Shown here: piece by piece, positions 2,441-54,387 of the stretch | How the letters are laid out: each line of letters starts with the position of its first letter | Numbering within the stretch: position 1 is the first letter of the stretch | Source: Terriglobia bacterium | GTDB taxonomy: Bacteria; Acidobacteriota; Terriglobia; 20CM-2-55-15 | Length of the DNA: 64,000 nt | NCBI GenBank assembly: GCA_963664115.2 | Contig: CAXWPJ010000009.1 | Span: 928,001 to 992,000 of the forward strand | Direction of reading: 5' to 3' | Program-made: the position numbers and the translations under genes | The notes under the pieces: generated by a model | Databases searched by the model: none | Seen by the model: the letters and a program-made list of their open reading frames with translations, nothing else | Told to the model about the DNA's origin: nothing

Positions 2441-2497
2441 ATCAACATCGTCCTGAACTGGTTTGAAGAACTGAAGGAACGGGTGCCGGTTCCCTGA
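2441..2497 (+). pseudogene. 3' stub of Ser/Thr kinase (INIVLNWFEELKERVPVP*)
   Basis: Matches the C-terminus of the intact kinase at 17169-19820 (IRLVLNWFEELKQRVPLP*). Confidence 0.85.
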
Positions 2498-2506
2498 TTT
2501 TGAGGG

Positions 2507-2542
2507 TCAATTCCTGATATATCCTCTTCCCAGAGGTTGAGA
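2507..2542 (+). repeat. Dispersed quasi-palindromic site, degenerate copy A
   Basis: TCAATTCCTGATAT-ATCCTC-TTCCCAGAGGTTGAGA, 9 bp after the kinase stub, same spacing as other copies. Confidence 0.7.
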
Positions 2543-2876
2543 TCCTACCTGCTGAGTAAATGGCCCACATAACTGTAATTCCCTACGCTCGTGATACTCT
2601 TCCGGCAAGTATTCCAACTTCGACTACGTCTTTTTAGATCAAGGGCAGCAAGCACCTCACACTGGTTATGAGGACAACGAGATGAAGTTTTCGCTCCCCC
2701 ACAAACGAGCTGTCGTTGGCCATTCGCTCACTGTGAAAGTCCAAGCGGAGGGGGATTAACGGATCACCCTAAACAGCTCTAATAGAGAATACAAAAGAGG
2801 GTGTACGAAGGGCCAACACCCACCCCCGGGGCCAAATGGTTCTAGGCGAGGTTCGCAGGTGAGAGTGGTTTGTTTC

Positions 2877-2897
2877 CTGCCACAGTTTCTGCCACAG
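2877..2897. repeat. Direct repeat CTGCCACAG x2 (integrase arm-site-like)
   Basis: CTGCCACAG-TTT-CTGCCACAG, about 80 bp from the tRNA fragment. Confidence 0.5.
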
Positions 2898-2976
2898 AAT
2901 AGCCCAAGCAGCAGGTAAAACGAGGTGACACCAACCAGCTAAACGTTTGAGAGGGAAGAGCGAGCCATTATCAACT

Positions 2977-3019
2977 TGGTTTTCGAGACCACCGCCTTCG
3001 ACCGCTCGGCCATTCCTCC
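2977..3019 (-). pseudogene. 5' half of tRNA-Ser(CGA), probable att-site remnant
   Basis: Minus strand GGAGGAATGGCCGAGCGGTCGAAGGCGGTGGTCTCGAAAACCA gives acceptor 5' strand, D arm and anticodon arm (CGA); no variable arm, T arm or 3' acceptor follows. Confidence 0.8.
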
Positions 3020-3213
3020 GTGGGGACAGCTTATCACGTAAGGCGTCTGTTTTCTGTTACTTAATCGTTACCTTCAAACGACGTCACATGACGAGGTCAT
3101 TAATTAGGCGATCTGTTTCATTCATTGTTTATTGAATCCCGCGGGTTTGATACTTTGCCTGATTAAACCCGATCATATTCCATTCAATTGAAATTATTAC
3201 AAGAGGTATTCAC

Positions 3214-4011
3214 TTGGCTGAAGTCACGGTTTCGACCGGCAACCTGATCTCGTATCACGACAGCGGCAACGGCACGCCGATCCTGTTTTTGCACAGCTTT
3301 GGTCATAACAAGAATATGTGGTTTCCGCAGCTCACGCATTTCGTCGAGCTCGGCTATCGCGTCATCGCGCCAGACATGCCGGGCCACGGCAACTCGGCCT
3401 TCGATCCCGGCAATCATACTGTCGATGCAATCGGCGGCATGTACGGAGAATTTCTCGACCAGCTCGGCGTCGGCAAAGCGATCGTGGTGGGTATTTCCAT
3501 TGGCGGTTACATTGCGCTGCGCATGTGGGCGCGCCGTCCGGAGCAGATATCGGGCCTGGTTATGATCTGCAGCAAGGCCGACGCCGACAGCGATGAGATC
3601 AAGGAAAGGCGCCGGGCCCAGATTGAGAATATTCATACGAACGGCCTCGAGAACTTCGTTATTACGGGCGCACCCAAACGGGTCGCGCCAAAGACCGCTC
3701 GCGATCGGCCCTGGATCGTCGACTGGATCAAGATGATGAACTTTACCGTCAGTGCCGAGGCCAACGCGGCCACACTCGAGGCTATGGCGATCAAAGAAGA
3801 CGATACCGAGACATTGCAGACGATCGACGTGCCGGCGCTGATCCTCTCGGGCAGTGACGATATCTTCATTCCCAAAGACTCGCCGCATAGTCTCAATAAC
3901 GGCATCAAAAACTCGGTGCATCATGTCATCCAGGATGCCGGGCATGTCGCAAACCTGGAAAATCCGACTGCGGTAAACGAGTACATCGAAGATTTTCTAA
4001 AAACATTATGA
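3214..4011 (+). CDS. Alpha/beta hydrolase (PcaD/MhpC-like)
   Basis: DMPGHG, GISIGG nucleophile elbow, AGHVANLE; RBS GAGG upstream of TTG. Confidence 0.9.
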   Translation: MAEVTVSTGNLISYHDSGNGTPILFLHSFGHNKNMWFPQLTHFVELGYRVIAPDMPGHGNSAFDPGNHTVDAIGGMYGEFLDQLGVGKAIVVGISIGGYIALRMWARRPEQISGLVMICSKADADSDEIKERRRAQIENIHTNGLENFVITGAPKRVAPKTARDRPWIVDWIKMMNFTVSAEANAATLEAMAIKEDDTETLQTIDVPALILSGSDDIFIPKDSPHSLNNGIKNSVHHVIQDAGHVANLENPTAVNEYIEDFLKTL

Positions 4012-4048
4012 TATTAGCTGTAGCCGGTTAAGCAGAACGAGGTGCACT

Positions 4049-4984
4049 TTGAAACTGCTCACGTTTACGACCACACAACATTCGGCCCGGAAACTCGGCG
4101 CACATTTCGAAGGCAATATGATTGTCGACCTGGCTCGCGCCTACGAGGTGTATTGCGATGCGCGAGCACCGGATTGGTTTGACTCGGTTAGCAATCTGCT
4201 GAAAGGCGGCGACCGCGCGATGGCGCTGGCGCAGGAGATTCACGATCTCGCAAGCGGTAAAACCATTGCCGACGACTCCGTATTCCTGAGCATGGACGAC
4301 ATTGTCTTTCATCCGCCCGCGGGGGACAGCGCAAAGATTCTTTGCGTGACCATGAACTACAGCTCCCATGCCAAGGCGAGCGGTACTAAGCAATCCACCG
4401 AGCCCTATTTCTTTGTCAAGATGCCAACGCTGATGACGCCGCATCGGGCACCGATCTGCCACTCGAAAACGTCTGAGAAGCATGACAGCGAAATCGAACT
4501 CGCCGTCATTATCGGCAAACGTGGCAAATACATCTCCCGCGACGATGCATTTGACTACATTGCCGGCTACGCGATTATTAATGACTTCAGTTTCCGCGAT
4601 CGCCGATCGCTGTCTGAAGACCCTAATTCAGCGCGGCTGCACTGGTTTACGCTGAAAAACCTCGACAACGCGGCTCCGATCGGTCCGTGGCTCGTGACCA
4701 AGGACGAGATTCCTGACCCGTACGATCTGGAGATCACCTTGACGCTGGATAATGAGCCCGAGCTCAAACAAAGCGCCTCGACAGAGGGCATGATGCACAG
4801 AATCGAGGATCTCGTCATGTACGCGTCCAACGGACTGACGCTGGAACCCGGCGATGTTATCGCCACGGGCACACCGCATGATGTAGCGTTCGGCCAGCAA
4901 CGTTTCCTGCAAGACGGCGATATTCTCCGCGCCGAGATTTCAAAGATCGGCGCCCTTGTTAATCCGATCCGGAGCGAGGATTGA
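4049..4984 (+). CDS. Fumarylacetoacetate hydrolase family protein
   Basis: NYSSH, DSEIELAVIIGK, ND, IGPWLVT, LEPGDVIATGTP motifs. Confidence 0.92.
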   Translation: MKLLTFTTTQHSARKLGAHFEGNMIVDLARAYEVYCDARAPDWFDSVSNLLKGGDRAMALAQEIHDLASGKTIADDSVFLSMDDIVFHPPAGDSAKILCVTMNYSSHAKASGTKQSTEPYFFVKMPTLMTPHRAPICHSKTSEKHDSEIELAVIIGKRGKYISRDDAFDYIAGYAIINDFSFRDRRSLSEDPNSARLHWFTLKNLDNAAPIGPWLVTKDEIPDPYDLEITLTLDNEPELKQSASTEGMMHRIEDLVMYASNGLTLEPGDVIATGTPHDVAFGQQRFLQDGDILRAEISKIGALVNPIRSED

Positions 4985-4988
4985 GGCG

Positions 4989-6116
4989 ATGAGCGCTACA
5001 CCCGAACTCTCTCGAGAAGCTTTCATTGAGGACCTGATTGCCAACAATTTCACGACGTATTTTGTCGCGACGCACTGGAAGTCCGCTAACAGCAATCCGG
5101 CATTTCGTTTCACACCAAGCCCCGTCAGCATCGCCGTGCCCTATTCCTGGTCGTATAGCGATGCCAGGCAACGGCTGATGAGCCTGAGTTCACTTCTGAC
5201 TACGGAAGAGGCCGAACGGCGAAACATTAATTTTGTAAATCCAGCGCTTAAGGACTTCATGCCCGCCGCTGCATTACCGACGTTGCGCGGCGGTATTCAG
5301 TTGTTGTTACCCGATGAACAGGCGTACTCGCATCGGCACACCGCGAATGCATTCCGCCTGGTTTTCGAGGCATCCGAGTCCGGCGCGTACACCAACGTCG
5401 GAGGTAATCGGCTACCAATGTCGATGGGTGACTTGATACTGACACCCAACTGGACCTGGCACGACCATCACAATGAAGGTGATGCCCGCGTCATCTGGTA
5501 CGACGGTCTCGATGTGCCCCTGGCGCATTGGATTGGAGGCGTGTTTGCTGAAGAGATGCTTGACGTGACAGGCGAGAAGCACCAGGCAATCACGCACGAG
5601 GCGAATGCCGTAACGGACAATTTCGGCCCGGGCATGATCCATCGCAAGAAAATGTCCCCGGACAATATTCCGGCATCCAACAATCCCCTGATTTATTATC
5701 CCTACAGCAAGGCGCGGGCCTCGCTCGCCGACCTGGCTGCGCAAGGTGCCGGGGATCCGCACGAGGGCGTAGTCGTCGAGTACGTGAACCCGGTGACCGG
5801 TGGCCCGACTTTCCCCACCATGGGGACATCGCTACGACTGATTAAGGAACAGTCAACTGTCGAGGCAATGCACAGAACGGAAAACATATTATTCATTACG
5901 ATGGAAGGGTCGGTGACCTTTCATCTTCCCGACGGTGAAAAGTTCACAACCGAACCGCATGACGTCACCGCAATGCCATCGTGGGTGCCGTACAGCATCA
6001 CCAACAAAAGCGATACACCGGCCGTGCTGTTTTCACAGACTGACCGCCCGGTATTTGAAGCGCTAGGGTTTTATCGGGAACAGAAAGTCCGAGTCACATT
6101 TACAGAGTTGAGCTAA
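4989..6116 (+). CDS. Bicupin ring-cleavage dioxygenase (gentisate 1,2-dioxygenase-like)
   Basis: ERR, HRHT, GDLILTPNWTWHDH, DGLDVP, YVNPVTGGP, D.P..EALG motifs. Confidence 0.88.
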   Translation: MSATPELSREAFIEDLIANNFTTYFVATHWKSANSNPAFRFTPSPVSIAVPYSWSYSDARQRLMSLSSLLTTEEAERRNINFVNPALKDFMPAAALPTLRGGIQLLLPDEQAYSHRHTANAFRLVFEASESGAYTNVGGNRLPMSMGDLILTPNWTWHDHHNEGDARVIWYDGLDVPLAHWIGGVFAEEMLDVTGEKHQAITHEANAVTDNFGPGMIHRKKMSPDNIPASNNPLIYYPYSKARASLADLAAQGAGDPHEGVVVEYVNPVTGGPTFPTMGTSLRLIKEQSTVEAMHRTENILFITMEGSVTFHLPDGEKFTTEPHDVTAMPSWVPYSITNKSDTPAVLFSQTDRPVFEALGFYREQKVRVTFTELS

Positions 6117-6150
6117 ATCAGGCGTAATCAGGAGGCCGCCGGTGAGATCT

Positions 6151-6270: not shown

Positions 6271-6310
6271 TTCTCAACGTCCGACAAAATCGTTTATCAG
6301 GACCTGAGAA
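6271..6310 (-). repeat. Dispersed quasi-palindromic site, copy B (inverted)
   Basis: TTCTCAACGTCCGACAA-AATCGT-TTATCAGGACCTGAGAA is close to the reverse complement of the consensus. Confidence 0.85.
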
Positions 6311-6399
6311 TTTGAGTTGAGCTTCTGATTGCTTACAAACCCCTCCCTTAGTATTCTTTACCGAGTTTTTCACGGTTCAACTAGCAACACACTATAACG

Positions 6400-6477
6400 A
6401 TGGAATCCGGCACCAAACTCGGCCACTACGAGATCCTCTCTCCGCTCGGCAAAGGCGGTATGGGGAAAGTGTGGAAG
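6400..6477 (+). pseudogene. 5' stub of Ser/Thr kinase (MESGTKLGHYEILSPLGKGGMGKVWK)
   Basis: Near-identical to the N-terminus of the kinase at 17169; similarity ends after 26 codons. Confidence 0.88.
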
Positions 6478-6790: not shown

Positions 6791-7201
6791 ATGATGAAGA
6801 AGCTGGGCACATTTTTCGCCTTGGTCGCGGGCATGGCGATCATCGCCGGGCCGCTATTCGCACATCACGGTACGGGAATTTCGTACGAATTGGACGCGCC
6901 ACTCCTCACGATGAAGGGCACAGTCACGGAATTTGCGTGGCGTAATCCTCATGTGACAATTTTTCTCGACGTAACGGAGGACAACGGCGATGTCGTTAGT
7001 TGGGCATTCGAACACAGCAACATAGCCAATCTAGCCAGGCAGGGGTATCACAGGAATACGTTGCAGGCTGGCCAAGAAGTCACCGTCGTTGGCCATCCTT
7101 CGAAATCAGGCGCGCCCGTTGGGCTTACGGTAGATGTCATACTTGCCGACGGGAGCAAAATACTCCAGAGGAGACAGGCGGGCGCTCCTCCTAGAAACTA
7201 A
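6791..7201 (+). CDS. DUF6152-like small exported protein (copy 2)
   Basis: PLFA|HHG, WRNPH. Confidence 0.88.
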   Translation: MMKKLGTFFALVAGMAIIAGPLFAHHGTGISYELDAPLLTMKGTVTEFAWRNPHVTIFLDVTEDNGDVVSWAFEHSNIANLARQGYHRNTLQAGQEVTVVGHPSKSGAPVGLTVDVILADGSKILQRRQAGAPPRN

Positions 7202-7243
7202 AAATTGAGGACGCGACGCAGAGAGTTGCGTAGGAGGATCAGA

Positions 7244-8107
7244 ATGCCGAATCTTTTCGTGGGCGTGCTGCTGTGGGTACTTTTTCTTCCGTCGCCAGCG
7301 TTCTCCGGCCACCCGGAGGGACAAGAACCGGGAACCGAGGGAGCTGCGAGTCAATTCGATCCACGTGATTTTTCGGGAATCTATATGCGGCGGGGCGGAG
7401 ACCGTGGCCTTAGCGCGGATATTCCTCCCATGACGCCGGAAGGTGAGGCAAGGCTCGACGACAACAGACCTGCCCGCGGAATCCCATTAGGCGACCCGCT
7501 GAACGGGGAACATCCCGGCCGCGCGAGGGCCGTTGTACCTGCGCTTTCAAACGATCCCATGATGGAGTGTAATCCGCAGGGTTTTCCTCGCCTCCTTCTC
7601 GATCCGGAGCTCGTCGAATTCGCTCACCTTGAGAGGCGGCTTCTGCAAATCTTCAACTGGGAAAACAGGATGCGCGAAGTCTGGCTGGACGGGCGAGAAG
7701 TGCCTTCGGGTGAGAACCTTGATAACCTGGGGCTGGCGTGGTACGGACACTCGGTTGGCGAATGGCAGGGAGACACCCTGGTTGTCCACACGGTCGGTCT
7801 TGATGATAGAGCGTGGGTCGATATCTTCGGTTTTCCGAAGAGCTCCGAAGCACGATTTGAAGAGCGCTACAGGAGGATCGACGCCGATACGATAGAGCTA
7901 CAAATTACGATGTATGACCCGAAGTACTACACAGAGCCTTGGGTGTCCGACACGAAGATTTTCGAGCGGCAGCCTGCCGAGAGTTACACGTTCTTTGGGT
8001 GGTCGGGCTTGTTCTCCGGGATTATAGACGGAATCTGCGCGCCGATGAACGAGGTCGATGACTTCAACTCCAGAGTTCGAGATCCTGCGGGCCTGGGTGC
8101 CCAGTGA
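7244..8107 (+). CDS. DUF6152-partner family protein (copy 2)
   Basis: RBS AGGAGG; FDPRDFSG, CNPQGFPR, WYGHSVGEWQGDTLVV, ICAP. Confidence 0.88.
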   Translation: MPNLFVGVLLWVLFLPSPAFSGHPEGQEPGTEGAASQFDPRDFSGIYMRRGGDRGLSADIPPMTPEGEARLDDNRPARGIPLGDPLNGEHPGRARAVVPALSNDPMMECNPQGFPRLLLDPELVEFAHLERRLLQIFNWENRMREVWLDGREVPSGENLDNLGLAWYGHSVGEWQGDTLVVHTVGLDDRAWVDIFGFPKSSEARFEERYRRIDADTIELQITMYDPKYYTEPWVSDTKIFERQPAESYTFFGWSGLFSGIIDGICAPMNEVDDFNSRVRDPAGLGAQ

Positions 8108-8218
8108 TCGCGATAGAGACCAGAAGGGGTTGAGGAGACACGGGGAATTTCACCCCGAGTAACGGGTCGCCGGAAGCGATCCGCAAGATTGCCGACATCC
8201 GGGCCTGCCCTCCCGCGC

Positions 8219-8272
8219 AACATCGTCCTCAACTGGTTTGAAGAACTGAAGGCGCGGGTGCCGGTACCTTGA
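8219..8272 (+). pseudogene. 3' stub of Ser/Thr kinase (NIVLNWFEELKARVPVP*)
   Basis: Matches the kinase C-terminus. Confidence 0.85.
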
Positions 8273-8281
8273 TTTTCAAGG

Positions 8282-8318
8282 TCAAGTCCTGAGAAATCAT
8301 CTTGTCGGACGTTGAGAA
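8282..8318 (+). repeat. Dispersed quasi-palindromic site, copy C
   Basis: TCAAGTCCTGAGAA-ATCATC-TTGTCGGACGTTGAGAA. Confidence 0.9.
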
Positions 8319-8611: not shown

Positions 8612-9094
8612 ATGTCAAAATGGTTGATTCCAGTCCTGGTTATCCCGGTTATTACAGTGACCGTGATATGGCTTCTCGATCCAGGCTCGTCAGAAGATTT
8701 AGCGGCTGGTAGTCCGGAAGCCCGAATCGTTACGTATTTGGACGAGAATATCGCGCCAGGCCGGTTTGTGCTGGTCACGGACTTGTACAACAACGTCTTC
8801 ACGACTCCCGAGGAGCGTGAGGCATTGCAACGGCTCTACGACTCTTTGTTTGAGCTCCCAGCTTTCGCTGCCCAGGTCTACATTGAGACTGGCCGCATAC
8901 CGACAGCTCAGGACATATCGGACCACTTTGGTTTTCAGGTTCCCGGGACAACGATTGTGCTTCTTCGTGTCTTGGAATCCGATCCCCGCATTCCACCGTT
9001 TTTTGAGCGCGATCTCACTACGGGAGAAATCACACAAATCGACGTGGATGCCATCGCGGCTCACGATCGTTTTGGGCGGGCGCTTCGGAATTAG
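8612..9094 (+). CDS. Hypothetical protein with N-terminal membrane anchor
   Basis: 160-aa ORF, hydrophobic N-terminus, protein-like composition. Confidence 0.7.
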   Translation: MSKWLIPVLVIPVITVTVIWLLDPGSSEDLAAGSPEARIVTYLDENIAPGRFVLVTDLYNNVFTTPEEREALQRLYDSLFELPAFAAQVYIETGRIPTAQDISDHFGFQVPGTTIVLLRVLESDPRIPPFFERDLTTGEITQIDVDAIAAHDRFGRALRN

Positions 9095-9254
9095 CATTCT
9101 GTATGGATGTCCTGACTCATCTCCTAGCTGCCACTTCCCACGGCCACAAAAGTCTTTGGCTGGAAGATATCCTTCGGTAAGCTTAGGGATCGCACCGCAG
9201 TATGCACGCGGAGCAACCGCGAAAACTCGTGTCACGAATCAGAGGAGTTAAACA

Positions 9255-9626
9255 ATGCGTTTAGGATTCTCTCTCGCAGTCGGCGTGAGCGTTCTCGCGC
9301 TGTCGCTTTTGGCCGTTCCGGCGATTGCCCACCACGGTTGGGGCGGAAACCAGAGCGAGGAATTTGAAATCACGGGCACACTTCACAGGGCCGTGAGCCT
9401 TGCCGGACCGCACGCGACAATGCAGTTGATGGTCGAAGGCCAGGTGTGGGACGTCACTTTGGCACCGCCCGCTCGCACCAGTCGTTCGGGCCTGACTGAA
9501 GACATCATTCCGGTCGGGGCCGAGGTCACGCTACATGGTCACCGCAACCGCACGAGGTTCGAGGTCAAGACCGAACGTGTGATGTGGAACGGGCAGACGT
9601 TCGCCGTATATCCCAACCGCCAGTAA
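9255..9626 (+). CDS. DUF6152-like small exported protein (copy 3)
   Basis: RBS GAGGAG; AIA|HHGW; GPH in place of NPH. Confidence 0.85.
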   Translation: MRLGFSLAVGVSVLALSLLAVPAIAHHGWGGNQSEEFEITGTLHRAVSLAGPHATMQLMVEGQVWDVTLAPPARTSRSGLTEDIIPVGAEVTLHGHRNRTRFEVKTERVMWNGQTFAVYPNRQ

Positions 9627-9939
9627 ATTACTAATTGATGGTGTGGCTGGAAGTCGCCACCTTCGACCACGCCATCTTACTCTTGCCAGACCGACCCGTA
9701 GGTGCGCTTCGCACCGCAAGTCTGACAAGCCCAAATCTCGGCCAGGATTAGCCTCTCATTATTGGCGAATCGGAAAACGATTCGGGCGAAAGTCAGATTA
9801 TCGTTGTTCAGAACTGTTACGAAAATATGGTGTAAGTCCCTCAGGATCAGTCCAGGCGTTTCGGGCCCTCTTCCGCAGTATCGGGAGCGCGAAACTGCTT
9901 ATTTTCATCATTCGCCGGGTGAGCCACACTCATGAAGTC

Positions 9940-9978
9940 TGGTTTGAAGAACTGACCGAACGGGTGCCGGTGCCATAG
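9940..9978 (+). pseudogene. 3' stub of Ser/Thr kinase (WFEELTERVPVP*)
   Basis: Matches the kinase C-terminus. Confidence 0.8.
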
Positions 9979-9987
9979 TTTTTGAGT

Positions 9988-10004
9988 TCAAGTCCTGTTA
10001 AATC
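9988..10004 (+). repeat. Left half of site D (split by IS1111-like element)
   Basis: TCAAGTCCTGTTAA-ATC; the matching right half resumes at 13396. Confidence 0.85.
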
Positions 10005-10028
10005 GCAGTATGAAAGGACGCCCCTAGA

Positions 10029-11875: not shown

Positions 11876-11960
11876 CCTAGACTGGGGGTTGTTGAGAGAA
11901 GACTCACTCAACAACCTGATCAACGTATACAGCGTTGATCCCAGAAAAGGAGCGTTCGAG

Positions 11961-13025: not shown

Positions 13026-13089
13026 GCCGTTTCGATCCGTGACCGGTAGAGCCGTACTGAGTCGTTAGACGGAGTCGGAACAACTGAGG

Positions 13090-13217
13090 ATCGAGGGTGA
13101 GGATCTGCACAAGATGTGGTCCCTGGATACGTCCAGAGGACACTTTTAAATCTCTATCCCCCCTCGCACGACCTGAAACAGCGATAGCCTTCGAGGCTCA
13201 GATAGATCCATGGTCGG
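13090..13217 (+). ncRNA. Candidate bridge/seek RNA core (two internal-loop stem-loops)
   Basis: Loop 1 carries ACAAGATG and TTAAATC (match the target site); loop 2 carries AAACAGCGAT and ATAGATC (match the IS junction). Confidence 0.65.
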
Positions 13218-13395
13218 CACATGCCGTCCCATATGCTGTTCAGTTTCTGAATCGACCGTCTTAAAGATGTACGATTTCGCTCCGGATTGCCGGAACCAGG
13301 GCTTCACATAACGGTAGAGGGGCTGGCTGTCACGACAAAAGTGTCCGTCTGGCCGGCCATCGGGGAGCTGTTTCTCTTGACATCCCCTTTCATAG

Positions 13396-13417
13396 ATCAT
13401 CTTGTCGGACCTTGAGA
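13396..13417 (+). repeat. Right half of site D
   Basis: ATCATC-TTGTCGGACCTTGAGA. Confidence 0.85.
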
Positions 13418-13521
13418 TTCCCACCGTCGGAAAGACACGCGCCATTGCATCCCCTAATTCGTCCATTTCCAGTGTTTAACTGGTTCGCCGATCAGATAGA
13501 TGCTTTCGGATCAATTCCGCA

Positions 13522-15590: not shown

Positions 15591-15594
15591 CTAG

Positions 15595-17132: not shown

Positions 17133-17168
17133 CTAGCCTTCTAAACACTGTTCTGGCAACCCGTAATT

Positions 17169-19820
17169 ATGGAATCTGGCACCAAACTCGGCCATTACGA
17201 GATCTCAACGCTCTTGGGTAAGGGTGGAATGGGCGAAGTGTGGCGTGCCAAGGACACGAAGCTCGGGCGTGAAGTTGCTATCAAGACGCTGCCTGAAGAG
17301 TTTGCCAAAGATGCAGATCGTCTCGCACGTTTTGAACGTGAAGCTAGATTACTGGCCTCTCTAAATCATCCCCACATTGCAGCGATTCATGGTTTCGAGG
17401 AAGACAACGGCACTCCCTTTCTGGTCCTCGAACTCGTCGAAGGTGACACGCTCGCTGATCGGTTGAAACGTGGAGCCATCCCTGTAGAAGAAACTCTGAA
17501 ACTAGCCTTACAGATCGCTGAAGCCCTGGAAGCAGCACACGAGAAGGGTGTGATTCATCGTGATTTGAAACCGGCGAACATTAAAGTGACTCCCGACGGG
17601 AAAGTGAAGGTACTCGACTTTGGATTGGCAAAGGCATTCGCTGGCGACACCGATATAGACATTTCCAAGTCACCTACCCTGAGCATGCAGGCCACGCAAC
17701 AAGGAATCATTCTAGGTACTGCAGCATACATGTCACCGGAGCAGGCAAAGGGGCATAGCGTGGATAAACGCGCCGACGTGTGGGCGTTCGGATGCGTCCT
17801 GTACGAAATGCTGACGGGCCGTCGGGCGTTCGGAGGTGAAGAAGTTTCGGAAATACTTGCATCTGTACTTGCCCGAGACCCCGACTACACGAAGTTGCAG
17901 CCCAACCTCCATCCAAGACTGAGAGAGGTTCTGGAGAGGTGCCTGGAGAGGGATTTAAGGAAAAGATTCCAAGGCATCGGTGACGTGATTGTAGATATCG
18001 ATAAAGTGATTGCCAGTTCGGAAGGCGGTATCGTTTCATCCCGCGACATCGTCCCGACTTCACGATCCAAACTGGCCTGGGCTTTTGTGGCCGTTCCTTT
18101 AGTGATTGCTGGAACTCTTGCGTTTAACTTGAGCCGAGCTGTAGGTGTCTCGGCTCCGCCTGCGGTGATCCGTTCTTCGATCACCCTGTCACTTGACGAT
18201 AGTCTCAACTTGAACGGAAATCTAGCCTTCTCTCCGGACGGTAGCATGCTCGCTTTTAATCGTGTGCGCGATGGAAGCTCACAGATATGCGTCCGTGACA
18301 TGGACAATTGGGCAATCCGTTGTATCCCAGGCACAGAGGCCGCGACTCATTTTTTCTTCTCTCCAGACAGTCAGCAGATTGGTTACAGCGGAGGCGGCGC
18401 CTTAAGAGCTGTATCGGTGACTGGGGAATCGCCGATCGTACTTGCGGATTCGGCGGGATTGGGTGGAAGTTGGGGTAAAGATGGAAGCATCGTCTTCAAT
18501 TCGGGCTACAACCAGGGACTTTCTCGCATTGGAGCCGACGGGGGGCCAGTTACGGAATTGACTGTGCCGGACCCTGCGAATGACGAGCTGGGCCATTTCT
18601 ATCCTCAGTTGCTGGACGATGGGAACACGGTCATTTTTACGGTGTTTTCTCCGCTTCTGGAAAGGGCCTATGTTGCCGCACTCCGTTTGAGCGATGGGGA
18701 AATCCGGCCGTTGATTGCTAACGCTGTTTCTGGCCGCTATATTTCGAGCGGACATCTTCTGTTCGTGCGCTCGAACAACCTGATGGCCGTGCCCCTGGAC
18801 CTGTCCCGACTGGAAGTGAACGGCACACCCGTTGCGGTCGTCGATGATATGCCCCTGGATCCCGCTGAAGGAGACTCCGCGTTTGCAGTGTCTGGCGACG
18901 GTGCACTGGCCTATGTGCCGGAATCGGTGCTGAACCCGGAGCTGCAACTGGCCTGGATCGACCCTCAGGGAGACGAGGAGCTGCTTTCGGGAATCCGTGG
19001 TCCGTTTGGAAGTATCGCCTTGTCACCTGACGGTGAGAGGGTGGCGTTGACGAGGTTCCAGGCTAACCCGGATATCTGGCTCTATGAACTGGGGACCGGC
19101 AGAGGTATTCGCTTTACGTTCGGCGACGCAGGCGAAGGTAGTCCTGTGTGGATGCCGGATTCCAGCCGAATCGCGTTCTTCAGCGACCGGCCACCCTATG
19201 ATTTGTATTGGCAGCCGACGGATCGCAGCGATAGCGAGGCGGAACTGCGGTCGAGTCCTTACGACAAGGTCCCCACATCTGTTTCGCCCGACGGCACCCT
19301 GCTTGTGTTCCACGAGAATCGTGTCGACACAACCGGAGAAGACATCTGGTTGTTGCCGGTCAATGGTGACGAAGATCCACGCGTTTTTCTTCAGACCGAA
19401 TTCCACGAGTACGATGGGGTAGTGTCGCCGAACGGGGAGTGGATCGCCTACGTGTCCGACGAGTCCGGACAGGCAGAAGTTTATGTTCAGGCGTTTCCGC
19501 AGGGAGGTGACCAGCGGTCGGTTTCTAGCCAAGGAGGAGAGGAACCACGCTGGTCTCGAGACGGACGGACGCTGTATTACGTTTCTGGACAGTCGCTGAT
19601 GGCGGTGGAGGCCGAGCCGGGTCCGCCCATGAGGGTCGGCGAAGAAAGCGAATTGTTTGGAATTGAGACAGTCCGCCCAGCCAGGGATGGGACGCGCTAC
19701 GGCGTGGACGCAGAGGGACGCTTCCTGATAGTGAAATACCCGGCGGAATCTCAACCACGGGAAATCCGCCTCGTCCTGAACTGGTTTGAAGAACTGAAGC
19801 AACGAGTGCCGCTGCCTTGA
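17169..19820 (+). CDS. Hanks-type Ser/Thr protein kinase with TM segment and TolB/PD40 beta-propeller
   Basis: GKGGMG, VAIK, HRDLKPAN, DFG, YMSPE; TM near aa 302-320; repeated SPDG units. Confidence 0.95.
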   Translation: MESGTKLGHYEISTLLGKGGMGEVWRAKDTKLGREVAIKTLPEEFAKDADRLARFEREARLLASLNHPHIAAIHGFEEDNGTPFLVLELVEGDTLADRLKRGAIPVEETLKLALQIAEALEAAHEKGVIHRDLKPANIKVTPDGKVKVLDFGLAKAFAGDTDIDISKSPTLSMQATQQGIILGTAAYMSPEQAKGHSVDKRADVWAFGCVLYEMLTGRRAFGGEEVSEILASVLARDPDYTKLQPNLHPRLREVLERCLERDLRKRFQGIGDVIVDIDKVIASSEGGIVSSRDIVPTSRSKLAWAFVAVPLVIAGTLAFNLSRAVGVSAPPAVIRSSITLSLDDSLNLNGNLAFSPDGSMLAFNRVRDGSSQICVRDMDNWAIRCIPGTEAATHFFFSPDSQQIGYSGGGALRAVSVTGESPIVLADSAGLGGSWGKDGSIVFNSGYNQGLSRIGADGGPVTELTVPDPANDELGHFYPQLLDDGNTVIFTVFSPLLERAYVAALRLSDGEIRPLIANAVSGRYISSGHLLFVRSNNLMAVPLDLSRLEVNGTPVAVVDDMPLDPAEGDSAFAVSGDGALAYVPESVLNPELQLAWIDPQGDEELLSGIRGPFGSIALSPDGERVALTRFQANPDIWLYELGTGRGIRFTFGDAGEGSPVWMPDSSRIAFFSDRPPYDLYWQPTDRSDSEAELRSSPYDKVPTSVSPDGTLLVFHENRVDTTGEDIWLLPVNGDEDPRVFLQTEFHEYDGVVSPNGEWIAYVSDESGQAEVYVQAFPQGGDQRSVSSQGGEEPRWSRDGRTLYYVSGQSLMAVEAEPGPPMRVGEESELFGIETVRPARDGTRYGVDAEGRFLIVKYPAESQPREIRLVLNWFEELKQRVPLP

Positions 19821-19822
19821 TT

Positions 19823-19849
19823 TCAAATCATCTTGTCGGACGTTGAGAA
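19823..19849 (+). repeat. Site copy G (left arm deleted)
   Basis: TCAA-ATCATC-TTGTCGGACGTTGAGAA directly after the kinase stop. Confidence 0.85.
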
Positions 19850-20088
19850 TTCGTACTTCACAAGACGGCTACATCGGGCGCACTCAGCGCAGCGGCCTAT
19901 TTTGTGGCGATCCTCTTTCTTTAGAGCTGGTTAAGGCCTTGGACACCTTGTAGGAGGTCATCGGGTCTAGAAGCCCCCCTTTTTTCTCCCTGGCATTTGA
20001 ATTTGACAGTCCTACGACCCGACCGGATGCTGGTAAACAGACGGTAGGATACGTCGCTCTTTTCGATTGTAAGGAGGCCGACGTGGAC

Positions 20089-21245
20089 CTAGTGTACCCC
20101 GCTCGAAGTAATGTAACTAAAATAGCTTTCCAACGTCCAATAGAGAATGAGGAAAGCACCGACCATTGAATTGGATGACAAGCAGCGGATGGAGTTGGAG
20201 CGACTGAGTCGAAGCCGGAGTACATCGGTCCGGTTGGCGGAACGATCCCGAATTGTATTACTGGCCGCTGAAGGTCGGAACAATTATGAGATCGCCGCCC
20301 GCTTGGAGATCACGCGCCAGAAAGCGGGCCGCTGGCGCAATCGTTTTGTGGAACAGGGCTTGGCTGGGATCGAAAAGGATGCGCCGCGAAGCGGACGGAT
20401 TCCCACGATCAGTCGCCGGAAGCGAGCCCGGATCGTCAAGAAGACACTGGAAGAGAAGCCCCCGAACGCGACGCACTGGAGTCGGGCCTCGATGGCGAAG
20501 GCCGTTGGCGTGAGCGAGTCCACGGTCGGGAAAATCTGGCGGGTCCATGGACTGAAGCCTCATCTGTCACGAACCTTCAAACTATCCAACGACAAACGAT
20601 TCGCCGAAAAGCTGGAGGATGTGGTCGGTCTGTATCTGAGCCCACCGGAAAACGCCATTGTCTTGTCCTGCGATGAGAAGAGCCAGATGCAGGCCCTGGA
20701 CCGCACGCAACCCGGGTTACCTCTGAAGAAGGGGCGGTGTGGCACCATGACCCACGATTACAAACGTAACGGGACAACCACGCTTTTCGCCGCGCTCAAC
20801 ATCCTGGACGGTTCGGTCATCGGAACCTGCATGCCAAAGCATCGCCATCAGGAATGGATCCGGTTTCTGAATCAGATCAAACGCGCCATGCCGAAAGATA
20901 AGGAGATCCACATTATTTGCGACAACTATGCGACTCACAAACATCAGAAAGTCGTCAACTGGCTCAAGCGTAACAAGCGTTTTCATGTGCACTTCACGCC
21001 AACCAGTGCGTCGTGGCTCAACATGGTCGAGCGCTTTTTCCGGGATCTGTCCGAGCAACGACTCCGGCGTGGCGTTTTCCGCTCGGTCCCCGAGTTGATC
21101 CAGGCCGTGGAGGACTACCTCGCTCGTCACAATGAAGACCCGAAACCCTTCATCTGGACTGCAACGGCTTCCGACATCCTTGCTAAAGTCCAGCGCGGCC
21201 GGCGAAATCTTGATAAGTTACAGTCTGTTTAACGGGGACCACTAG
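20089..21245 (+). mobile_element. IS630-family element
   Basis: Ends CTAGTGTACCCCG and CGGGGACCACTAG; TA target within CTAG. Confidence 0.88.
20147..21232 (+). CDS. IS630-family transposase
   Basis: CDEKSQ.QALDR, HDYKRNGT, DNYATHK, HFTPTSASWLN.VE. Confidence 0.95.
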   Translation: MRKAPTIELDDKQRMELERLSRSRSTSVRLAERSRIVLLAAEGRNNYEIAARLEITRQKAGRWRNRFVEQGLAGIEKDAPRSGRIPTISRRKRARIVKKTLEEKPPNATHWSRASMAKAVGVSESTVGKIWRVHGLKPHLSRTFKLSNDKRFAEKLEDVVGLYLSPPENAIVLSCDEKSQMQALDRTQPGLPLKKGRCGTMTHDYKRNGTTTLFAALNILDGSVIGTCMPKHRHQEWIRFLNQIKRAMPKDKEIHIICDNYATHKHQKVVNWLKRNKRFHVHFTPTSASWLNMVERFFRDLSEQRLRRGVFRSVPELIQAVEDYLARHNEDPKPFIWTATASDILAKVQRGRRNLDKLQSV

Positions 21246-21516
21246 ACCTACTGGCCCTGATCCGTAACCATCCCTTTTTGTCCCTCATTGGCATCTTCAT
21301 GTTGTACGACACGTTCATTAGAAGGTGGCCGTCGGATTAGCACCCCGAAAGCCTCCTTCCTCTGCCATGCAGTATCCAGTTCGAGAACTTCTTTCATGCG
21401 ACCTTCCATTCCCGCGTAGCCTTACCCACCGCTAACACAATCGCGCCCGCTGCTGCGTGTACGTCGTCAGAATAATTCGGACAAAAAGGCCGTTTTGCTA
21501 AGAGACGGTTTTCAAG

Positions 21517-22500
21517 TTATACCACTCCAGTCCTAAGGTTCTCGAACCTGCGTTGAGCCAGCGTCGTTCGTTTGATCTGGTCACGACGTGAAAGGACCTG
21601 CTGATCCCTCCCAAAGAACACGTCTGCTGGTGTCACGTTGTTAAGAGATTCGTGATACCGATGGTGGTTGTAGTGTTCAACCCATTGCTCGATCGCATGC
21701 TCGAGTTCCCACGGATAATAGTAATGTTCCAGTTTGACCACGTTCTTCATCGAACGGTGATAGCGTTCGATCTTGCCCTGTGTCATCGGGTGATAGGGCG
21801 CACCCCGAGTGTGTTCCATACCGCAACGTTGTAAATAGTCTTTGAGTTCGTGCGACACGTAGCAGGGGCCATTGTCGCTCAACAGGCGCGGCCGGTGCCG
21901 GACCTGTATCTGGTCGACGCCGGTCGCGTGTAGCGCCAGGTCCAGCGTGTCCTGAACGTCGGAGGCGGCCATGGTCTGGAACAACGTCCAGGCGATGATG
22001 TAGCGGGAGTAATCGTCCAGGACCGTGGACAGGTAATACCAACCCCAACCAACGACCCGAAAATAGGTGAAGTCGGTCTGCCAGAGTTCGTTCACACGCC
22101 GGGTTGGATGCTGGAAGTGATCGCTGGCCGTCATCACGATGTAGGCTGGACTGGTGATCAGGTCGCACCGCTTCAGTATCCGATACACGCTGGATTCGGA
22201 GATGAAGTAGTCCTGGGTGTCGGTGATCTGCCAGGCCAACTCCCGGGGTGAGACTTCCGGATGCGTGAGCGCCGTCTCCACGACCTGTTCCCGCACCGGT
22301 CCCGGAATCCGGTTCCAGCAGAAGCCGGGGCCGGAATGCCGATCCAATAAACCGACAGCGCCACGCTCTTTGTATCGGCGATACCAACCGTAGAAGGTGC
22401 TGCGAGGGATTCCCAGTTCCCGCACCGTCGCTGTCACCGACAACTCCGAGTCTTCCACCACTCGGATCGTCTCCAGCTTCTCAGATCCCGATTGCCTCAT
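21517..22500 (-). CDS. Transposase OrfB (integrase core)
   Basis: WQTDFT, LDDYSR, SDNG, P.TQGKIER. Confidence 0.92.
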   Translation of the reverse strand: MRQSGSEKLETIRVVEDSELSVTATVRELGIPRSTFYGWYRRYKERGAVGLLDRHSGPGFCWNRIPGPVREQVVETALTHPEVSPRELAWQITDTQDYFISESSVYRILKRCDLITSPAYIVMTASDHFQHPTRRVNELWQTDFTYFRVVGWGWYYLSTVLDDYSRYIIAWTLFQTMAASDVQDTLDLALHATGVDQIQVRHRPRLLSDNGPCYVSHELKDYLQRCGMEHTRGAPYHPMTQGKIERYHRSMKNVVKLEHYYYPWELEHAIEQWVEHYNHHRYHESLNNVTPADVFFGRDQQVLSRRDQIKRTTLAQRRFENLRTGVV

Positions 22501-22862
22501 ATATCGATGCTCTCGGAGTCCGTTACGTTCAACGTTTTTTTCAGAAAACGATTCTTCAGCAGTATTTCGGCCACCACCTGCTTCAACTGGTCGTTCTCCT
22601 GGCGCAATTCGGTGACTTCACTCGACGTGGCTTCCCGCTTCGTGTCCCCGGCCAGTCGTTTCTTTCCGGCCTCCAGGAAGTCCTTGCTCCACCGGTAATA
22701 CAAATTCGATGGAATCCCTTCGCGTCGGCACAGCTCTGCGATGCTCTCTTCACCTCGCAGCCCTTCCAACACGATCCGCACTTTCTCTTCCGACGAGTAC
22801 TTCTGCCTCGTCTTCCGACGAATCTCCCGTACCCGATTCTCTGCCGACACTTTCTCTTTCAT
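22497..22862 (-). CDS. Transposase OrfA (HTH)
   Basis: YSSEEKVRIVLEG, CRREGI; A7 slippery run at 22535-22541 and ATGA overlap with OrfB. Confidence 0.88.
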   Translation of the reverse strand: MKEKVSAENRVREIRRKTRQKYSSEEKVRIVLEGLRGEESIAELCRREGIPSNLYYRWSKDFLEAGKKRLAGDTKREATSSEVTELRQENDQLKQVVAEILLKNRFLKKTLNVTDSESIDI

Positions 22863-23149: not shown

Positions 23150-23971
23150 ATGAAGTGTCCAAGCCGGGTTCTCATGCGAATCATGAAATACGGGACAAGC
23201 CTACTGGTTTTCATTTTACTGGTGGGAATTCCATTGTCGACCGAAGCCCAATCATCGCGTCCCACCCTGGAAGGCATGTGGAGTGATCCGCCCGCCACTG
23301 CAGTGGGAGACTTCTGCCATGGATGGTGTACCGACGCCGGACTTGACTACCTAGAAAGACTGTTGGACGACCCCGCAAACGACGCTCGTGGGTTCCGCGA
23401 ACTTCAGGCGGAGGCCGCCAAACATCAACAAGAGACATACATCGTCCCTCGACTAACAGCTGCGGCGCTAGAGACCTACCCGCTGGACCCAGCAGACGAT
23501 CCATCATTTCTTCGTTGTGAGCCGTATGGACTGGCCCGACAGATGCGAGTGAGGCACCAGCTTGAGATAAGGCAGCGCGGCAATGACCTAATCGAATTCC
23601 ATTACGGAGAATGGGACGCGCGGAGGACGATCTATCTGAATGGCCGCGAGCGCCCATCCAACCAGACGACGCTATTGGGACATTCTGTGGCCCACTGGGA
23701 TGGCGAGACGCTGGTTGTCGAGACGGCCGGTATTCAAGCAAACCGCCTCCCCTTTAACGCCGAACACAGCGACCAACTGCGGGTTGTAGAACGCTATGCC
23801 CGCTCGAAGGACGACGACACGTTAGTGCTTACGGCGACGATGGAGGATCCGTGGGGTTTGCGGGAGCCGGTGGTGATTAAGAGAATCTGGCGTTGGGCTC
23901 CGGAGAGCCGGATTGATCCGTATGAAGACTGCGAACTCCCGACCGAATTCACGAGAGGAGTGACGCCATGA
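23150..23971 (+). CDS. DUF6152-partner family protein (copy 3, divergent)
   Basis: LEGMWS, CEPYG, GHSVAHWDGETLVVET, terminal Cys; start may be 23183. Confidence 0.85.
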   Translation: MKCPSRVLMRIMKYGTSLLVFILLVGIPLSTEAQSSRPTLEGMWSDPPATAVGDFCHGWCTDAGLDYLERLLDDPANDARGFRELQAEAAKHQQETYIVPRLTAAALETYPLDPADDPSFLRCEPYGLARQMRVRHQLEIRQRGNDLIEFHYGEWDARRTIYLNGRERPSNQTTLLGHSVAHWDGETLVVETAGIQANRLPFNAEHSDQLRVVERYARSKDDDTLVLTATMEDPWGLREPVVIKRIWRWAPESRIDPYEDCELPTEFTRGVTP

Positions 23972-24414
23972 GACTGTTACGCTCGTGGTTTTTAGTTTTG
24001 CCGGTTCTGATGCTGTCTGCAGTAGAGGCCAGTTCGCATCATGCGTTTAGCCCGGTCTACGACGAAACGCAGCTGATCACGGTTGCAGGCATGGTGACTC
24101 AGTTCAGGTTCGTTAATCCGCACGCGATGATGTTGATGGAAATCACAGATGAGTCAGGTCAGATTGTGAAATGGACAGTCGAGTTTGCTGGAGTTCTCAA
24201 TCTGTCGGAGGTGGGTTGGACAGCCGACTCGATCAAGGCTGGCGAACTGGTGACGGTAACCGGCAACCCGACCCATACCGGCTCCCAGAGAATGTTCTTT
24301 CGTCGACTCGCCCGGCCAGATGGAACGGAACTCCTGCCGGCAGGCCCCCAACGTCTGAAAGCTATTGAAGAGGAGCGGAGGCAGCGTGCACTCCGGAGGA
24401 ATCAAGAAAATTAA
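23968..24414 (+). CDS. DUF6152-like small exported protein (copy 4)
   Basis: ASS|HHAF, FVNPH; ATGA overlap with the upstream partner gene. Confidence 0.87.
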   Translation: MRLLRSWFLVLPVLMLSAVEASSHHAFSPVYDETQLITVAGMVTQFRFVNPHAMMLMEITDESGQIVKWTVEFAGVLNLSEVGWTADSIKAGELVTVTGNPTHTGSQRMFFRRLARPDGTELLPAGPQRLKAIEEERRQRALRRNQEN

Positions 24415-24540
24415 TCCAACCTTTCGCCCGTACCGCTGTGCAGTTGGTCCTCCACGATTTCGCTAGGGGCGACGCAGGATTAATCGTGCCTTGGCACCTT
24501 GCGTTTAGGGATCAATCAAATCGGTCTGTGGCAGGTAAGA

Positions 24541-24607
24541 GAGCGCGTGCCGGTTCCCTGATTTCAAGTTCAAGGTAACGACAAATCATCTTCTCGGACC
24601 TTGAGAA
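24541..24607 (+). repeat. Kinase 3' tip (ERVPVP*) plus site copy H
   Basis: GAGCGCGTGCCGGTTCCCTGA-TTTCAAGT-TCAAGGTAACGACAA-ATCATC-TTCTCGGACCTTGAGAA. Confidence 0.85.
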
Positions 24608-24935
24608 TTGGAATTCCTAAAAAATTCTAAAAATCGGGCCCATTAATATGTCCCAAAAATACGCTCCCAGCCAGCCACCCAAACCTACCCTCACGCCTTT
24701 GTCGGTTCGATCCGACGCCATGTCAGCAAAAAGTAGCGCAACGTATCGGATTGCGGCTCTGTTCGGTCTGTAACGGTTATCGGCGGACGCGATGGGAAAA
24801 GCGCGTTACTCCGATTGTCGAAGCCGTCGTGCGCGGTAGGCGGCTGATCAAGATGGCTGACCCCCACCCAGCTCGATAGGCCCGGAAGAAGAACCGGGGC
24901 CGCGGACAGGACCTGGCTTTAGCAAGATCCGGAGA

Positions 24936-24963
24936 ACGTCGCATAATCAGTATCGTGCGAAGT
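24936..24963. other. Xer/dif-like 11-6-11 site of a second type
   Basis: ACGTCGCATAA-TCAGTA-TCGTGCGAAGT; both arms resemble XerC-type ACTTCGCATAA. Confidence 0.5.
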
Positions 24964-25151
24964 TACTTATTCACAATAAGTCTCAGCTCCTTTGGTTCGA
25001 ACCACCGATTGTGATCTATTCCGGTTGGGTCGGTCCAAGCACATAGGACGTTCGCTTTGATGTTTGGATCGGGATCTATCTCCATGACGGTCATTACGGC
25101 ATCGGTGATCTTGTCTATCACTTTGTCGCCGACTTTGCCTTTGAATGTCAT
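24963..25151 (-). CDS. Small YodC/DUF2158-like protein
   Basis: KVGD.V, MTV, C.W, F...EL pattern. Confidence 0.6.
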   Translation of the reverse strand: MTFKGKVGDKVIDKITDAVMTVMEIDPDPNIKANVLCAWTDPTGIDHNRWFEPKELRLIVNK

Positions 25152-25237
25152 TCAATGAGGGTAACAAATTGAACGGGCATATTCGGCGGCATGAGACAGC
25201 GGCTGTCGGATGTTGTGGTTTGACCAAGGAGCAATAA

Positions 25238-25411
25238 ATGAATCAGGTGTGACTGACCGGACACGTTGGACATCACGCCGAGTTGCGATACACCCAAAGC
25301 GGGACACCCATCCTGAATTTCTCCATCGCGACAAACGAATACTGGAAAGACGGCACCGGCCAAACGCAAATACGGACCGACTGGTACAAGTGCGTCTTGT
25401 GGGGCGTTTAA
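25238..25411 (+). pseudogene. ssb: Single-stranded DNA-binding protein pseudogene
   Basis: MNQV*LTGHVGHHAELRYTQSGTPILNFSIATNEYWKD...TDWYKCVLWG; stop at codon 5 and truncated; RBS AAGGAG. Confidence 0.8.
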
Positions 25412-25433
25412 GCCTCTCTCAGTGATCTCACCA

Positions 25434-25473
25434 TTCTCAAGTCCTGACAAATCATCTTCGCGGACATTGAGAA
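25434..25473 (+). repeat. Dispersed quasi-palindromic site, copy I
   Basis: TTCTCAAGTCCTGACAA-ATCATC-TTCGCGGACATTGAGAA. Confidence 0.9.
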
Positions 25474-54343: not shown

Positions 54344-54387
54344 GTTTTATACGACGGACAGACCGAAAGCGGCCTCGGCGGTGGAAG

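Follow-up and report, generated by a model that had tools for sequence, protein, structure and literature searches.

A 64,000-nucleotide stretch of the genome of an uncultured acidobacterium of the class Terriglobia (hereafter, the window; G000:C9:928001-992000, where G000 is this genome) contains repeated copies of an element of about 40 bp (hereafter, the site). Complete copies consist of imperfect inverted arms ending in AA/TT that flank an asymmetric 6-bp spacer, a geometry that the first-pass annotation had described and that was borne out here. Based on their spacers, the copies fall into two classes, A and B. The site lies at the joints of small gene modules, which vary from place to place and from relative to relative, and its two versions are strictly paired; an enzyme that cuts and rejoins DNA therefore likely acts on it. 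Copies were scored with a two-arm profile, on which the best of 20 shuffled windows reached 12.6.

The locus includes an intact 883-aa Ser/Thr kinase with PD40 repeats (17169..19820), a founder-type gene whose two ends recur elsewhere as 5' and 3' stubs. Features are on the forward strand unless stated otherwise. At the left, a kinase 3' stub and a degenerate, class-A-like site (2443..2540, the site itself at 2507-2540; recognized by repeat family and a profile score of 20) precede a first set of cargo genes between two right arms (3214..6116), encoding a PcaD-like alpha/beta hydrolase, a FAH-family protein and a gentisate-dioxygenase-like protein. A complete class-B site follows in inverted orientation (6271..6307, reverse strand; score 42), its left arm toward a kinase leader and 5' stub (6308..6474; ATG at 6400, about 75 nt of kinase homology). 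A DUF6152 protein and its partner (6791..8107) are then closed by a kinase 3' stub and a complete class-A site (8218..8318; score 45), in which the left arm spans 8282-8295, the spacer 8296-8301 and the right arm begins at 8302. The next module, an orphan open reading frame (ORF) and a DUF6152 protein (8612..9626), ends in a kinase 3' stub and the left half of a class-A site (9939..10004). Here an insertion sequence (IS) of the IS110 family (ORF 11889-13025) lies in the spacer and carries a nested IS1380 (ORF 10223-11755; together 10005..13395), beyond which the spacer and right half of the split site resume (13396..13419).

Further to the right, a cargo ORF with a weak OGG/HhH-like match (13522..14250; E = 7e-4) continues in frame through a complete class-A site (14143..14179; score 43). 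The leader of the intact kinase is occupied by IS701 and IS1182 elements (14214..17138, no strand assigned), and the kinase itself is followed by a class-A site with a deleted left arm (19821..19850), IS630 and IS481/IS3-like transposase genes (20147..22862, no strand assigned), a partner protein with a DUF6152 protein (23150..24414), and a short kinase 3' stub with a class-A site whose left arm is aberrant (24541..24607; score 15). A 62-aa cargo ORF without family match, then an ssb-like remnant seen by eye (24963..25151, reverse strand), lead to another complete class-A site (25434..25474; score 41). Behind this last site lie an MBL-fold protein (B3-like), which scores under every named beta-lactamase cut-off, and a DASS transporter (25676..28408, no strand assigned). 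Besides the IS110/IS1380 pair, the interval holds about four transposase genes, which the first-pass annotation had not recorded, just as it had overlooked the two spacer classes and the kinase stubs. Near the end of the window, a profile scan located two right arms joined by a 2-bp centre (63790..63825); this junction opens a HigBA-like cassette whose closing class-A site lies 860 bp on, beyond the window.

Nine of the ten copies listed in the first-pass annotation were upheld. Those at 8282, 14143 and 25434 (25437) are complete (scores 41-45), as is the inverted copy at 6271, which belongs to the second spacer class, and the copy given as split (9988/13396) is a single site opened by the nested IS elements. 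The copies at 2507, 19823 and 24570 are real, but the first is degenerate and stands behind a kinase 3' stub, the second has lost its left arm and the third has an aberrant one; the copy at 63790 is present as well, but as two joined right arms. A degenerate trace proposed at 29513 scored below 3, at chance level compared with shuffled windows. The annotated cargo also held up in large part, with most matches below curated cut-offs: this applies to aromatic catabolism, the DUF6152 pairs, the kinase, the MBL-fold protein and the transporter, and HigB is present from 63942, with HigA just beyond the window end (by eye, from the translation). The HhH protein was reduced to its weak OGG-like match, and the proposed YodC had no match in Pfam or NCBIfam. 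The sole Rfam match in the window was a group II intron fragment (2062-2282), leaving the site itself unmatched. At least seven paralogues of the DUF6152-partner gene occur between 581 and 53566, several of them outside site-bounded modules.

Site islands and spacer grammar

A profile scan of G000 found 273 sites (152 complete, 87 with the right arm only, 34 with the left arm only), compared to 1+1 matches in each of the control genomes (reversed; complemented). Each arm is conserved over 14-17 bp. The sites form 46 clusters over 673 kb (14% of the genome), and 251 of the 273 belong to 30 clusters of three or more (hereafter, islands). The median gap between sites was 2,356 bp, versus 11,952 bp under random placement, and only 12 of the 273 lie inside called genes. 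The array in the window, which had been read as a single local one, is therefore one of about 30 islands of a site family that is genome-wide and also present in a second Terriglobia family. Scatter in the manner of a repetitive extragenic palindromic (REP) element or a terminator would have spoken against gene capture; instead, the sites cluster in islands and module turnover ends at them, so that the capture claim survives.

Among congeners, 82, 39, 9 and 0 copies were found (three or fewer mismatches), and the zero-copy genome carries a degenerate variant. Overall, 24 of 401 Terriglobia genomes contain the site (two looser patterns each matched 17 of the same set), mainly members of this family and one genus of the second family. 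None of 272 genomes in a phylum-wide sample outside Terriglobia matched, and exact matches in sequence records fall in class Terriglobia. At least 129 metagenome stretches carry the site; viral contigs, searched with two exact patterns, and plasmids yielded no copy. A literature search, thin in its coverage of subscription journals and excluding supplements, returned no description of it.

Spacers in G000 comprise 163 of class A (ATCATC), 34 of class B (ACGACA or ACGACC) and 76 that are other or broken. Class is set by the three spacer bases beside the left arm (ATC/ACG in this genus, GTC/ACG in the second family), because spacers in the second family start with one of two triplets, ACG or GTC, and are highly variable in the last three bases. 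Neighbouring sites separated by less than 8 kb were compared, provided that both spacers could be classified. Direct neighbours were of the same class in all cases (129/129 in genus g1, 49/49 in the second family and metagenome contigs; total 178/178), and inverted neighbours were of different class in 45 of 49 and 83 of 87 cases, respectively (total 128/136; Fisher p = 6e-38 and 1e-32). The metagenome set was retrieved by an ACG pattern, which inflates that class but cannot create mixed inverted pairs.

Inverted pairs with their right arms inside are mostly empty and are spaced 37-42, 47-50, 57-62, 68 or 148 bp apart, in steps of about one helical turn. DNA outside the right arms consists of recurring 58- and 147-bp families. 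Four points are new in this analysis: a two-class spacer grammar shared by two families, spacing in helical steps, a proposed origin of cassettes in a kinase shell and a synteny test with zero crossings, the last two of which are described below.

Module turnover, kinase shells and mobile elements

Duplications within G000 and alignments to a congener both place module ends at the site, as a dif-module organization predicts for gain, loss and shuffling of modules. Of the 202 ends of 101 low-copy duplicated pairs in G000, 22 coincide with a site in both copies. Six pairs, representing four distinct cassettes (1289, 715, 683 and 389 bp), have a site at both ends and different neighbours; three of the four are organized as right arm, cargo, left arm between direct sites, and copies of one of the four differ, with direct sites in the one and an inverted site, split by an IS, in the other. 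For the cross-genome test, G000 was aligned (at least 300 bp, at least 88%) to 20 site-rich stretches of the congener G002 (400 kb, 121 sites). Alignments reached 24 of the 121 sites and crossed none of them, and 18 of these also ended at a G000 site, compared to 66 crossings and 24 alignment ends (66/90 crossed) at control gene ends behind stop codons. At sites in both genomes, 21 of 148 alignment ends were observed, against a null mean of 0.3 and maximum of 3.

Around many sites, unrelated sequence directly abuts both arms. Polymorphisms in the left arm are not linked to those in the right arm (p = 0.1-0.8), and right-arm positions are mutually linked in four of six pairs (p = 0.005-0.02). 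On 76 modules with the left arms inside, no target-site duplication exceeded the shuffles: 4-bp duplications numbered 17 (shuffle mean 9.6, maximum 19) and 5-bp ones four (mean 2.6), with none of 6 or 8 bp.

In this genus, the site is tied to a single family of Ser/Thr kinases with PD40 repeats, that of the intact gene in the window. A site lies within 90 bp of 58 of 97 kinase 3' stubs, and 66 of 124 complete class-A sites follow such a stub. Of 60 kinase 5' stubs, 22 have an inverted site upstream, 21 of these at a distance of 96-113 bp, and many other 5' ends are preceded, at 95-120 bp, by a class-A site, with a decayed partner between the two. Kinase homology is kept over 29-164 nt in 3' stubs and 29-800 nt in 5' stubs with scattered breakpoints, and a peak of stub length near 60 nt may merely mark the point at which paralogues diverge. 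A sigma-70-like motif was found in 41 of 60 kinase leaders versus 0.9% of random 100-mers; a stricter promoter scan confirmed one leader copy and missed the one in the window (6308..6474). Many cassettes in the genus can be described as a kinase shell, with promoter, 5' stub, cargo and 3' stub in this order. We infer that the founder cassette consisted of site, promoter, kinase and site, with its interior repeatedly replaced by cargo, and it is likely that new cassettes in this genus arise by illegitimate replacement inside it. The shell is not required by the site, because the second family and the metagenome loci share the same site and grammar with kinase stubs at only 2 of 124 loci. Genus g4 and G004 carry many kinase stubs (27-64 in three genomes) and few sites. 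Intact kinases of 880-915 aa and stubs also form long tandem arrays that lack the canonical site (G098:C35:102001-142000 and G004:C21:325001-345000); in the G004 array, the conserved repeat between genes is a different one.

In four other islands the cargo is varied and includes hydrolases, MBL-fold proteins, glyoxalase, GNAT, DUF6152 pairs, Fic, PQQ proteins and many orphans. The 117 direct cassettes mostly hold one to three genes, and 147 of 227 genes face the site, a bias rather than a strict rule (orientation from a simple, purpose-made gene caller). A 513-aa cargo protein between two class-A sites (L184:3969-5510) has three strong S1 domains and is ribosomal protein S1-like. By eye, several site-bounded cassettes, such as HigBA past the window end, show attC-like half repeats, which suggest that cargo was taken from integron cassettes.

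Four unrelated mobile elements target the site. One IS110-family element inserts in the spacer (at least seven copies) and a second in the left arm (five clear junctions), an IS30-family element enters the spacer centre in both orientations with a 2-bp duplication (at least eight junctions), and a group II intron occupies the right arm (three copies); counts of site-splitting elements are minimum values. The intron lacks an ORF, is about 700 nt long and lies at the same right-arm position each time (G000:C12:17042, C12:20179 and C12:564497). Homologues of the IS30 and of one IS110 element also lie in the second family's arrays. Integron attC repeats attract IS110-family elements and group II introns, and pdif sites are likewise targeted by mobile elements. 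In addition, eight IS91-linked recombinase elements adjoin a site or its remnant, the distance being about 30 bp at most. Six identical elements encoding a 293-aa tyrosine recombinase and an IS91-type transposase each start 20-30 bp from a site or remnant (G000: C1:92965, C1:107675, C2:196490, C12:35350, C12:158198 and C12:487026). G001 has about 20 copies of a relative of this element, and the five examined ignore the site.

Candidate recombinases and rival explanations

The site has the architecture of a tyrosine-recombinase core, and we consider it probable that such an enzyme recombines DNA at this two-armed site, at the borders of exchangeable modules of one to three genes. Between two direct sites of the same class, a cassette would leave by excision and insert elsewhere at a site of matching class, giving tandem runs. 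A module between inverted, incompatible sites could be neither inverted nor lost; its movement would take a double crossover, a model put forward for Acinetobacter dif modules. One strand exchange alone may need homology, because the left three spacer bases define the class and the right three vary freely in the second family. If the Holliday junction were then finished by replication or repair, cassettes would be copied rather than cut and arm polymorphisms scrambled. The short right-arm-to-right-arm pairs in helical steps could act as a double site that aids synapsis. In the founder kinase cassette, replacement of the interior would place cargo behind the kinase promoter and 5' stub, and before the 3' stub and site.

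No dedicated recombinase was found for the site, and the search for a linked one, which the first-pass annotation had proposed, found none near sites that follows the site across genomes. G000 encodes XerC, XerD, IntI, IS91-linked recombinases, phage-type integrases and one 316-aa recombinase; a relaxed search of this genome with a purpose-built recombinase profile yielded genes of known types and fragments, and nothing else. XerC and XerD are the sole PF00589 proteins common to G000, G003, G293 and G095 (matches examined: 11/12 in G003, 6/7 in G293, 3/3 in G095). The 316-aa recombinase (G000:C5:52189-53139) lies between two inverted class-B sites, with a kinase leader and 5' stub outward of each (G000:C5:52079-53250). 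It was treated as cargo, as it was not found in the site-rich G002 and G003 (all candidates scored) and was present in 7 of 24 site-bearing versus 83 of 377 other genomes (five candidates scored per genome), with a weak site at only one of 35 homologue loci. Its family occurs in 90 of 401 Terriglobia genomes, and the protein scores below every named NCBIfam cut-off. IS91-linked recombinases adjoin sites in G000, G002 and G004, but not in the five examined G001 copies, and were not found in G003, G293 or G095. IntI is patchy and far from sites (105 kb from the nearest in G000), and was also not found in those three genomes. The invertase-like recombinases of about 200 aa in G293 and G385 have no counterpart in genus g1; such catalytic-domain-only proteins, FimB/FimE-like in size, were seen in two second-family site-bearing genomes and two site-bearing metagenome contigs (L230, L232, L273, L277). 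Serine recombinases and Y1 transposases were set aside as well, as their counts do not track site counts across five genomes.

By exclusion only, XerC/XerD is thus the leading candidate, and we tentatively suggest that it acts on the site. It is less likely, although conceivable, that the enzyme is a dedicated tyrosine recombinase that was overlooked or has been lost from several genomes, and a recombinase outside PF00589 may also be responsible. The host dif is a different, single-copy sequence at the GC-skew switch (one copy in each of eight matching genomes). In G000, the probable chromosomal dif lies at C2:108,116-108,143, about 42 kb from xerD, with a second, weaker dif-like copy near C2:111,5xx, and dif candidates 33-46 kb from xerD are also present in G004, G095, G229 and G293. 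Identity of the site's right arm with the host XerC arm amounts to 7.1 of 11 bases in G000 and 5.5-7.0 in the second family, and the arms match the XerD arm at three second-family dif sites at 4.0-5.5 of 11. A conserved inner motif beside the central region determines Xer binding and cutting, according to PMC11705084. This motif occurs in 32% of left arms and 56% of right arms in the second family and metagenomes. In the XerD recognition helix of Terriglobia, the position following the conserved arginine is occupied by many different residues (G, A, M, V, I, H, C, D), while the predicted XerD arms of Terriglobia dif sites stay conventional.

Several results weigh against site-specific recombination as outlined, and against Xer proteins as its agents. 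The presence of XerC/XerD is weak evidence because nearly all relatives have them, and no pattern of XerD residues marks the site-bearing genomes, the recognition-helix residues being variable in all Terriglobia. By sequence, the site is not the dif or pdif it had been taken to resemble: host dif sites score -13 to -26 on the site profile, its arms match the host XerD arm in G000 at only 5.1 and 5.3 of 11 bases, and the Xer inner motif is found there in 23% of left arms and 0% of right arms. The arms are conserved past 11 bp and are more alike across the two families than host dif arms, an argument against XerC/XerD. If some 270 sites on one chromosome were live Xer targets, tight control would be needed, and none was identified. 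Turnover is not confined to the site either, since 180 of 202 duplicate ends lie away from sites, so that other processes must also move this DNA. The crossover cannot be placed more finely than the site itself, as positions -3, +3, +4 and +10 track neither flank well, which would suggest branch migration or gene conversion inside the site. No circle or deletion junctions with unique flanks were present in contigs of eight public runs, which break at the 40-bp repeat and whose listed joints stem from paralogous copies, making them uninformative about circles.

The site could instead be an operator or boundary motif amplified with the kinase intergenic region, with exchange by homologous or single-strand-annealing recombination in the 40-100 bp repeat of stub and site. 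The stub that precedes 66 of the 124 complete class-A sites would add homology, polymorphisms are scrambled over both arms with no single switch point, G004 and genus g4 are stub-rich but site-poor, and class-B sites lie directly upstream of a promoter-like motif. We nevertheless regard this explanation as improbable: homologous recombination is blind to a 3-bp class, yet direct mixed pairs number 0 of 178, many sites have unrelated sequence up to both arms, and the second family and metagenome contigs keep site and grammar at loci almost devoid of stubs (2/124).

Quite improbable, too, is that the sites are transposon-like ends, or targets of resident IS110/IS30 enzymes, and the modules transposase-less units. 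The absence of target-site duplication on 76 left-arm-inside modules speaks against it, even though such inverted pairs resemble terminal inverted repeats and one such module is solitary in G007. Two IS110-family elements and one IS30-family element do insert into the site, with homologues of the IS30 and one IS110 in the second family's arrays, but they destroy the sites they enter. Furthermore, the right-arm, cargo, left-arm order of three of the four duplicated cassettes between direct sites differs from inverted-end transposition, and the DNA outside right arms is made of the 58- and 147-bp families, not of random target. Action of the site as a folded single-strand hairpin, like attC with IntI or REP with its RAYT (REP-associated tyrosine transposase), appears very improbable. 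Of three copies from the window, two folded more favourably than shuffles (z about -2.6 to -3.6), but the consensus-like copy at 8282 does not (z = -0.6 and 0.2), and paired variable positions do not covary (p = 0.42). The integron integrase of G000 is 105 kb from the nearest site, with none found in G003, G293 and G095, and of its two Y1 transposase-like genes one is 300 bp from a site, whereas Y1 genes also occur in the site-poor G004. The group II intron does insert in the right arm, as would suit a hairpin; the element has no attC core, no Rfam match and a length of only 40 bp, and in direct cassettes just 147 of 227 genes are oriented toward the site.

Comparison with known systems

The first-pass annotation proposed a capture system analogous to pdif modules and integrons with an unrecognized site. 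Organization and turnover support this proposal, whereas a dif-type sequence, a single local array and a linked recombinase found no support. According to one report, Acinetobacter dif modules show alternating module types, fused modules between direct sites, empty modules and exchange at matching spacers (PMC13141974); chromosomal dif-module islands have been reported, with 22 sites in one Acinetobacter chromosome (PMC12907356; further comparison drew on PMC3025954 and PMC8138268). As far as these sources describe them, Acinetobacter modules share with ours an asymmetric two-arm site with 6-bp spacer, alternation of left-arm-inside and right-arm-inside modules, inverted flanking sites that differ in spacer, direct repeats bounding fused modules, short empty modules, HigBA-type cargo, IS targeting and chromosomal islands. 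Unlike in pdif, whose arms in the same sources nearly copy host dif arms, the arms here are far from host dif. They are also longer (13-17 bp conserved), only two spacer classes exist, fixed by three bases, direct runs dominate, the chromosomal copies number 273 versus the 22 in that account (PMC12907356), and the kinase-derived shells have no counterpart there. IS elements enter the site itself, whereas members of the IS1202 subgroup are described as inserting 5 bp beside pdif (10.1101/2022.12.17.520857). The organization thus matches a dif-module system, and membership fails on arm sequence. Chromosomal dif itself is a single copy at the terminus, unlike the 273 copies found here.

Long same-orientation runs of small cargo units, closed by a repeat and without an adjacent recombinase, resemble integron arrays and CALINs (clusters of attC sites lacking integrases). 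For attC, core inverted repeats and a length of at least 55 bp are expected. In contrast, the 40-bp site has no attC core (its left arm is without the core triplet) and conserves sequence rather than fold. It further differs from integron arrays in its inverted partner class, in a third of cargo genes facing away, in a promoter that travels inside many cassettes and in the absence of an adjacent intI/attI, intI being 105 kb from the nearest site. A complete integron integrase (G000:C9:713,000-715,800), far from any site, has an attC-type cassette upstream by eye. In engineered heterospecific lox/FRT systems, two spacer variants bracket a module for double-crossover exchange. The two seemingly non-recombining spacer variants around modules here recall this arrangement, but are natural, with a 6-bp spacer and asymmetric arms.

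REP/REPIN and Neisseria dRS3/NIME elements form hundreds of lineage-restricted intergenic near-palindromes, with inverted pairs around short spacers, and are IS110-family targets. The site shares intergenic near-palindromes, inverted pairs and IS110-family targeting with them, but is confined to variable islands and module borders, has a strict spacer grammar and lacks hairpin covariation. Instead of being scattered between core genes as REP/REPIN are, 251 of the 273 sites are clustered, and cross-genome homology never crosses them. One Y1 gene lies beside one atypical site in G000, and the Y1 loci of four congeners are without the site. Miniature inverted-repeat transposable elements and mobile insertion cassettes differ in that no target-site duplication outside the inverted ends was seen here (76 modules, within shuffle range). 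Overall, the site family operates in the manner of dif-module or integron cassette systems but falls within neither group. A bolder and rather unlikely extension is that Terriglobia run a third natural gene-cassette system apart from both, with a dedicated recombinase, a two-key site and, in this genus, a kinase shell for new cassettes; excision and insertion would then proceed at direct sites of the same class and module swaps by double crossover between incompatible inverted sites.

If site-specific exchange does take place, about one-seventh of the chromosome would be a reshufflable gene bank, invisible to integron and pdif searches, in an abundant and poorly cultured bacterial class. Either XerC/XerD would then harmlessly tolerate a site far from dif at hundreds of positions, or a new recombinase would exist, which, with two natural orthogonal sites, would be a lead for genome engineering. 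The birth of cassettes is an open question for integrons and dif modules, and the graded kinase stubs would provide a readable record of interior replacement. Through the strict two-class grammar, the double-crossover model of module movement can be put to a simple test that could falsify it. Elsewhere in the window (54359-59142), with no site nearby, NHL-repeat beta-propeller genes are tandemly duplicated with a period of about 2.58 kb and 83-91% identity.

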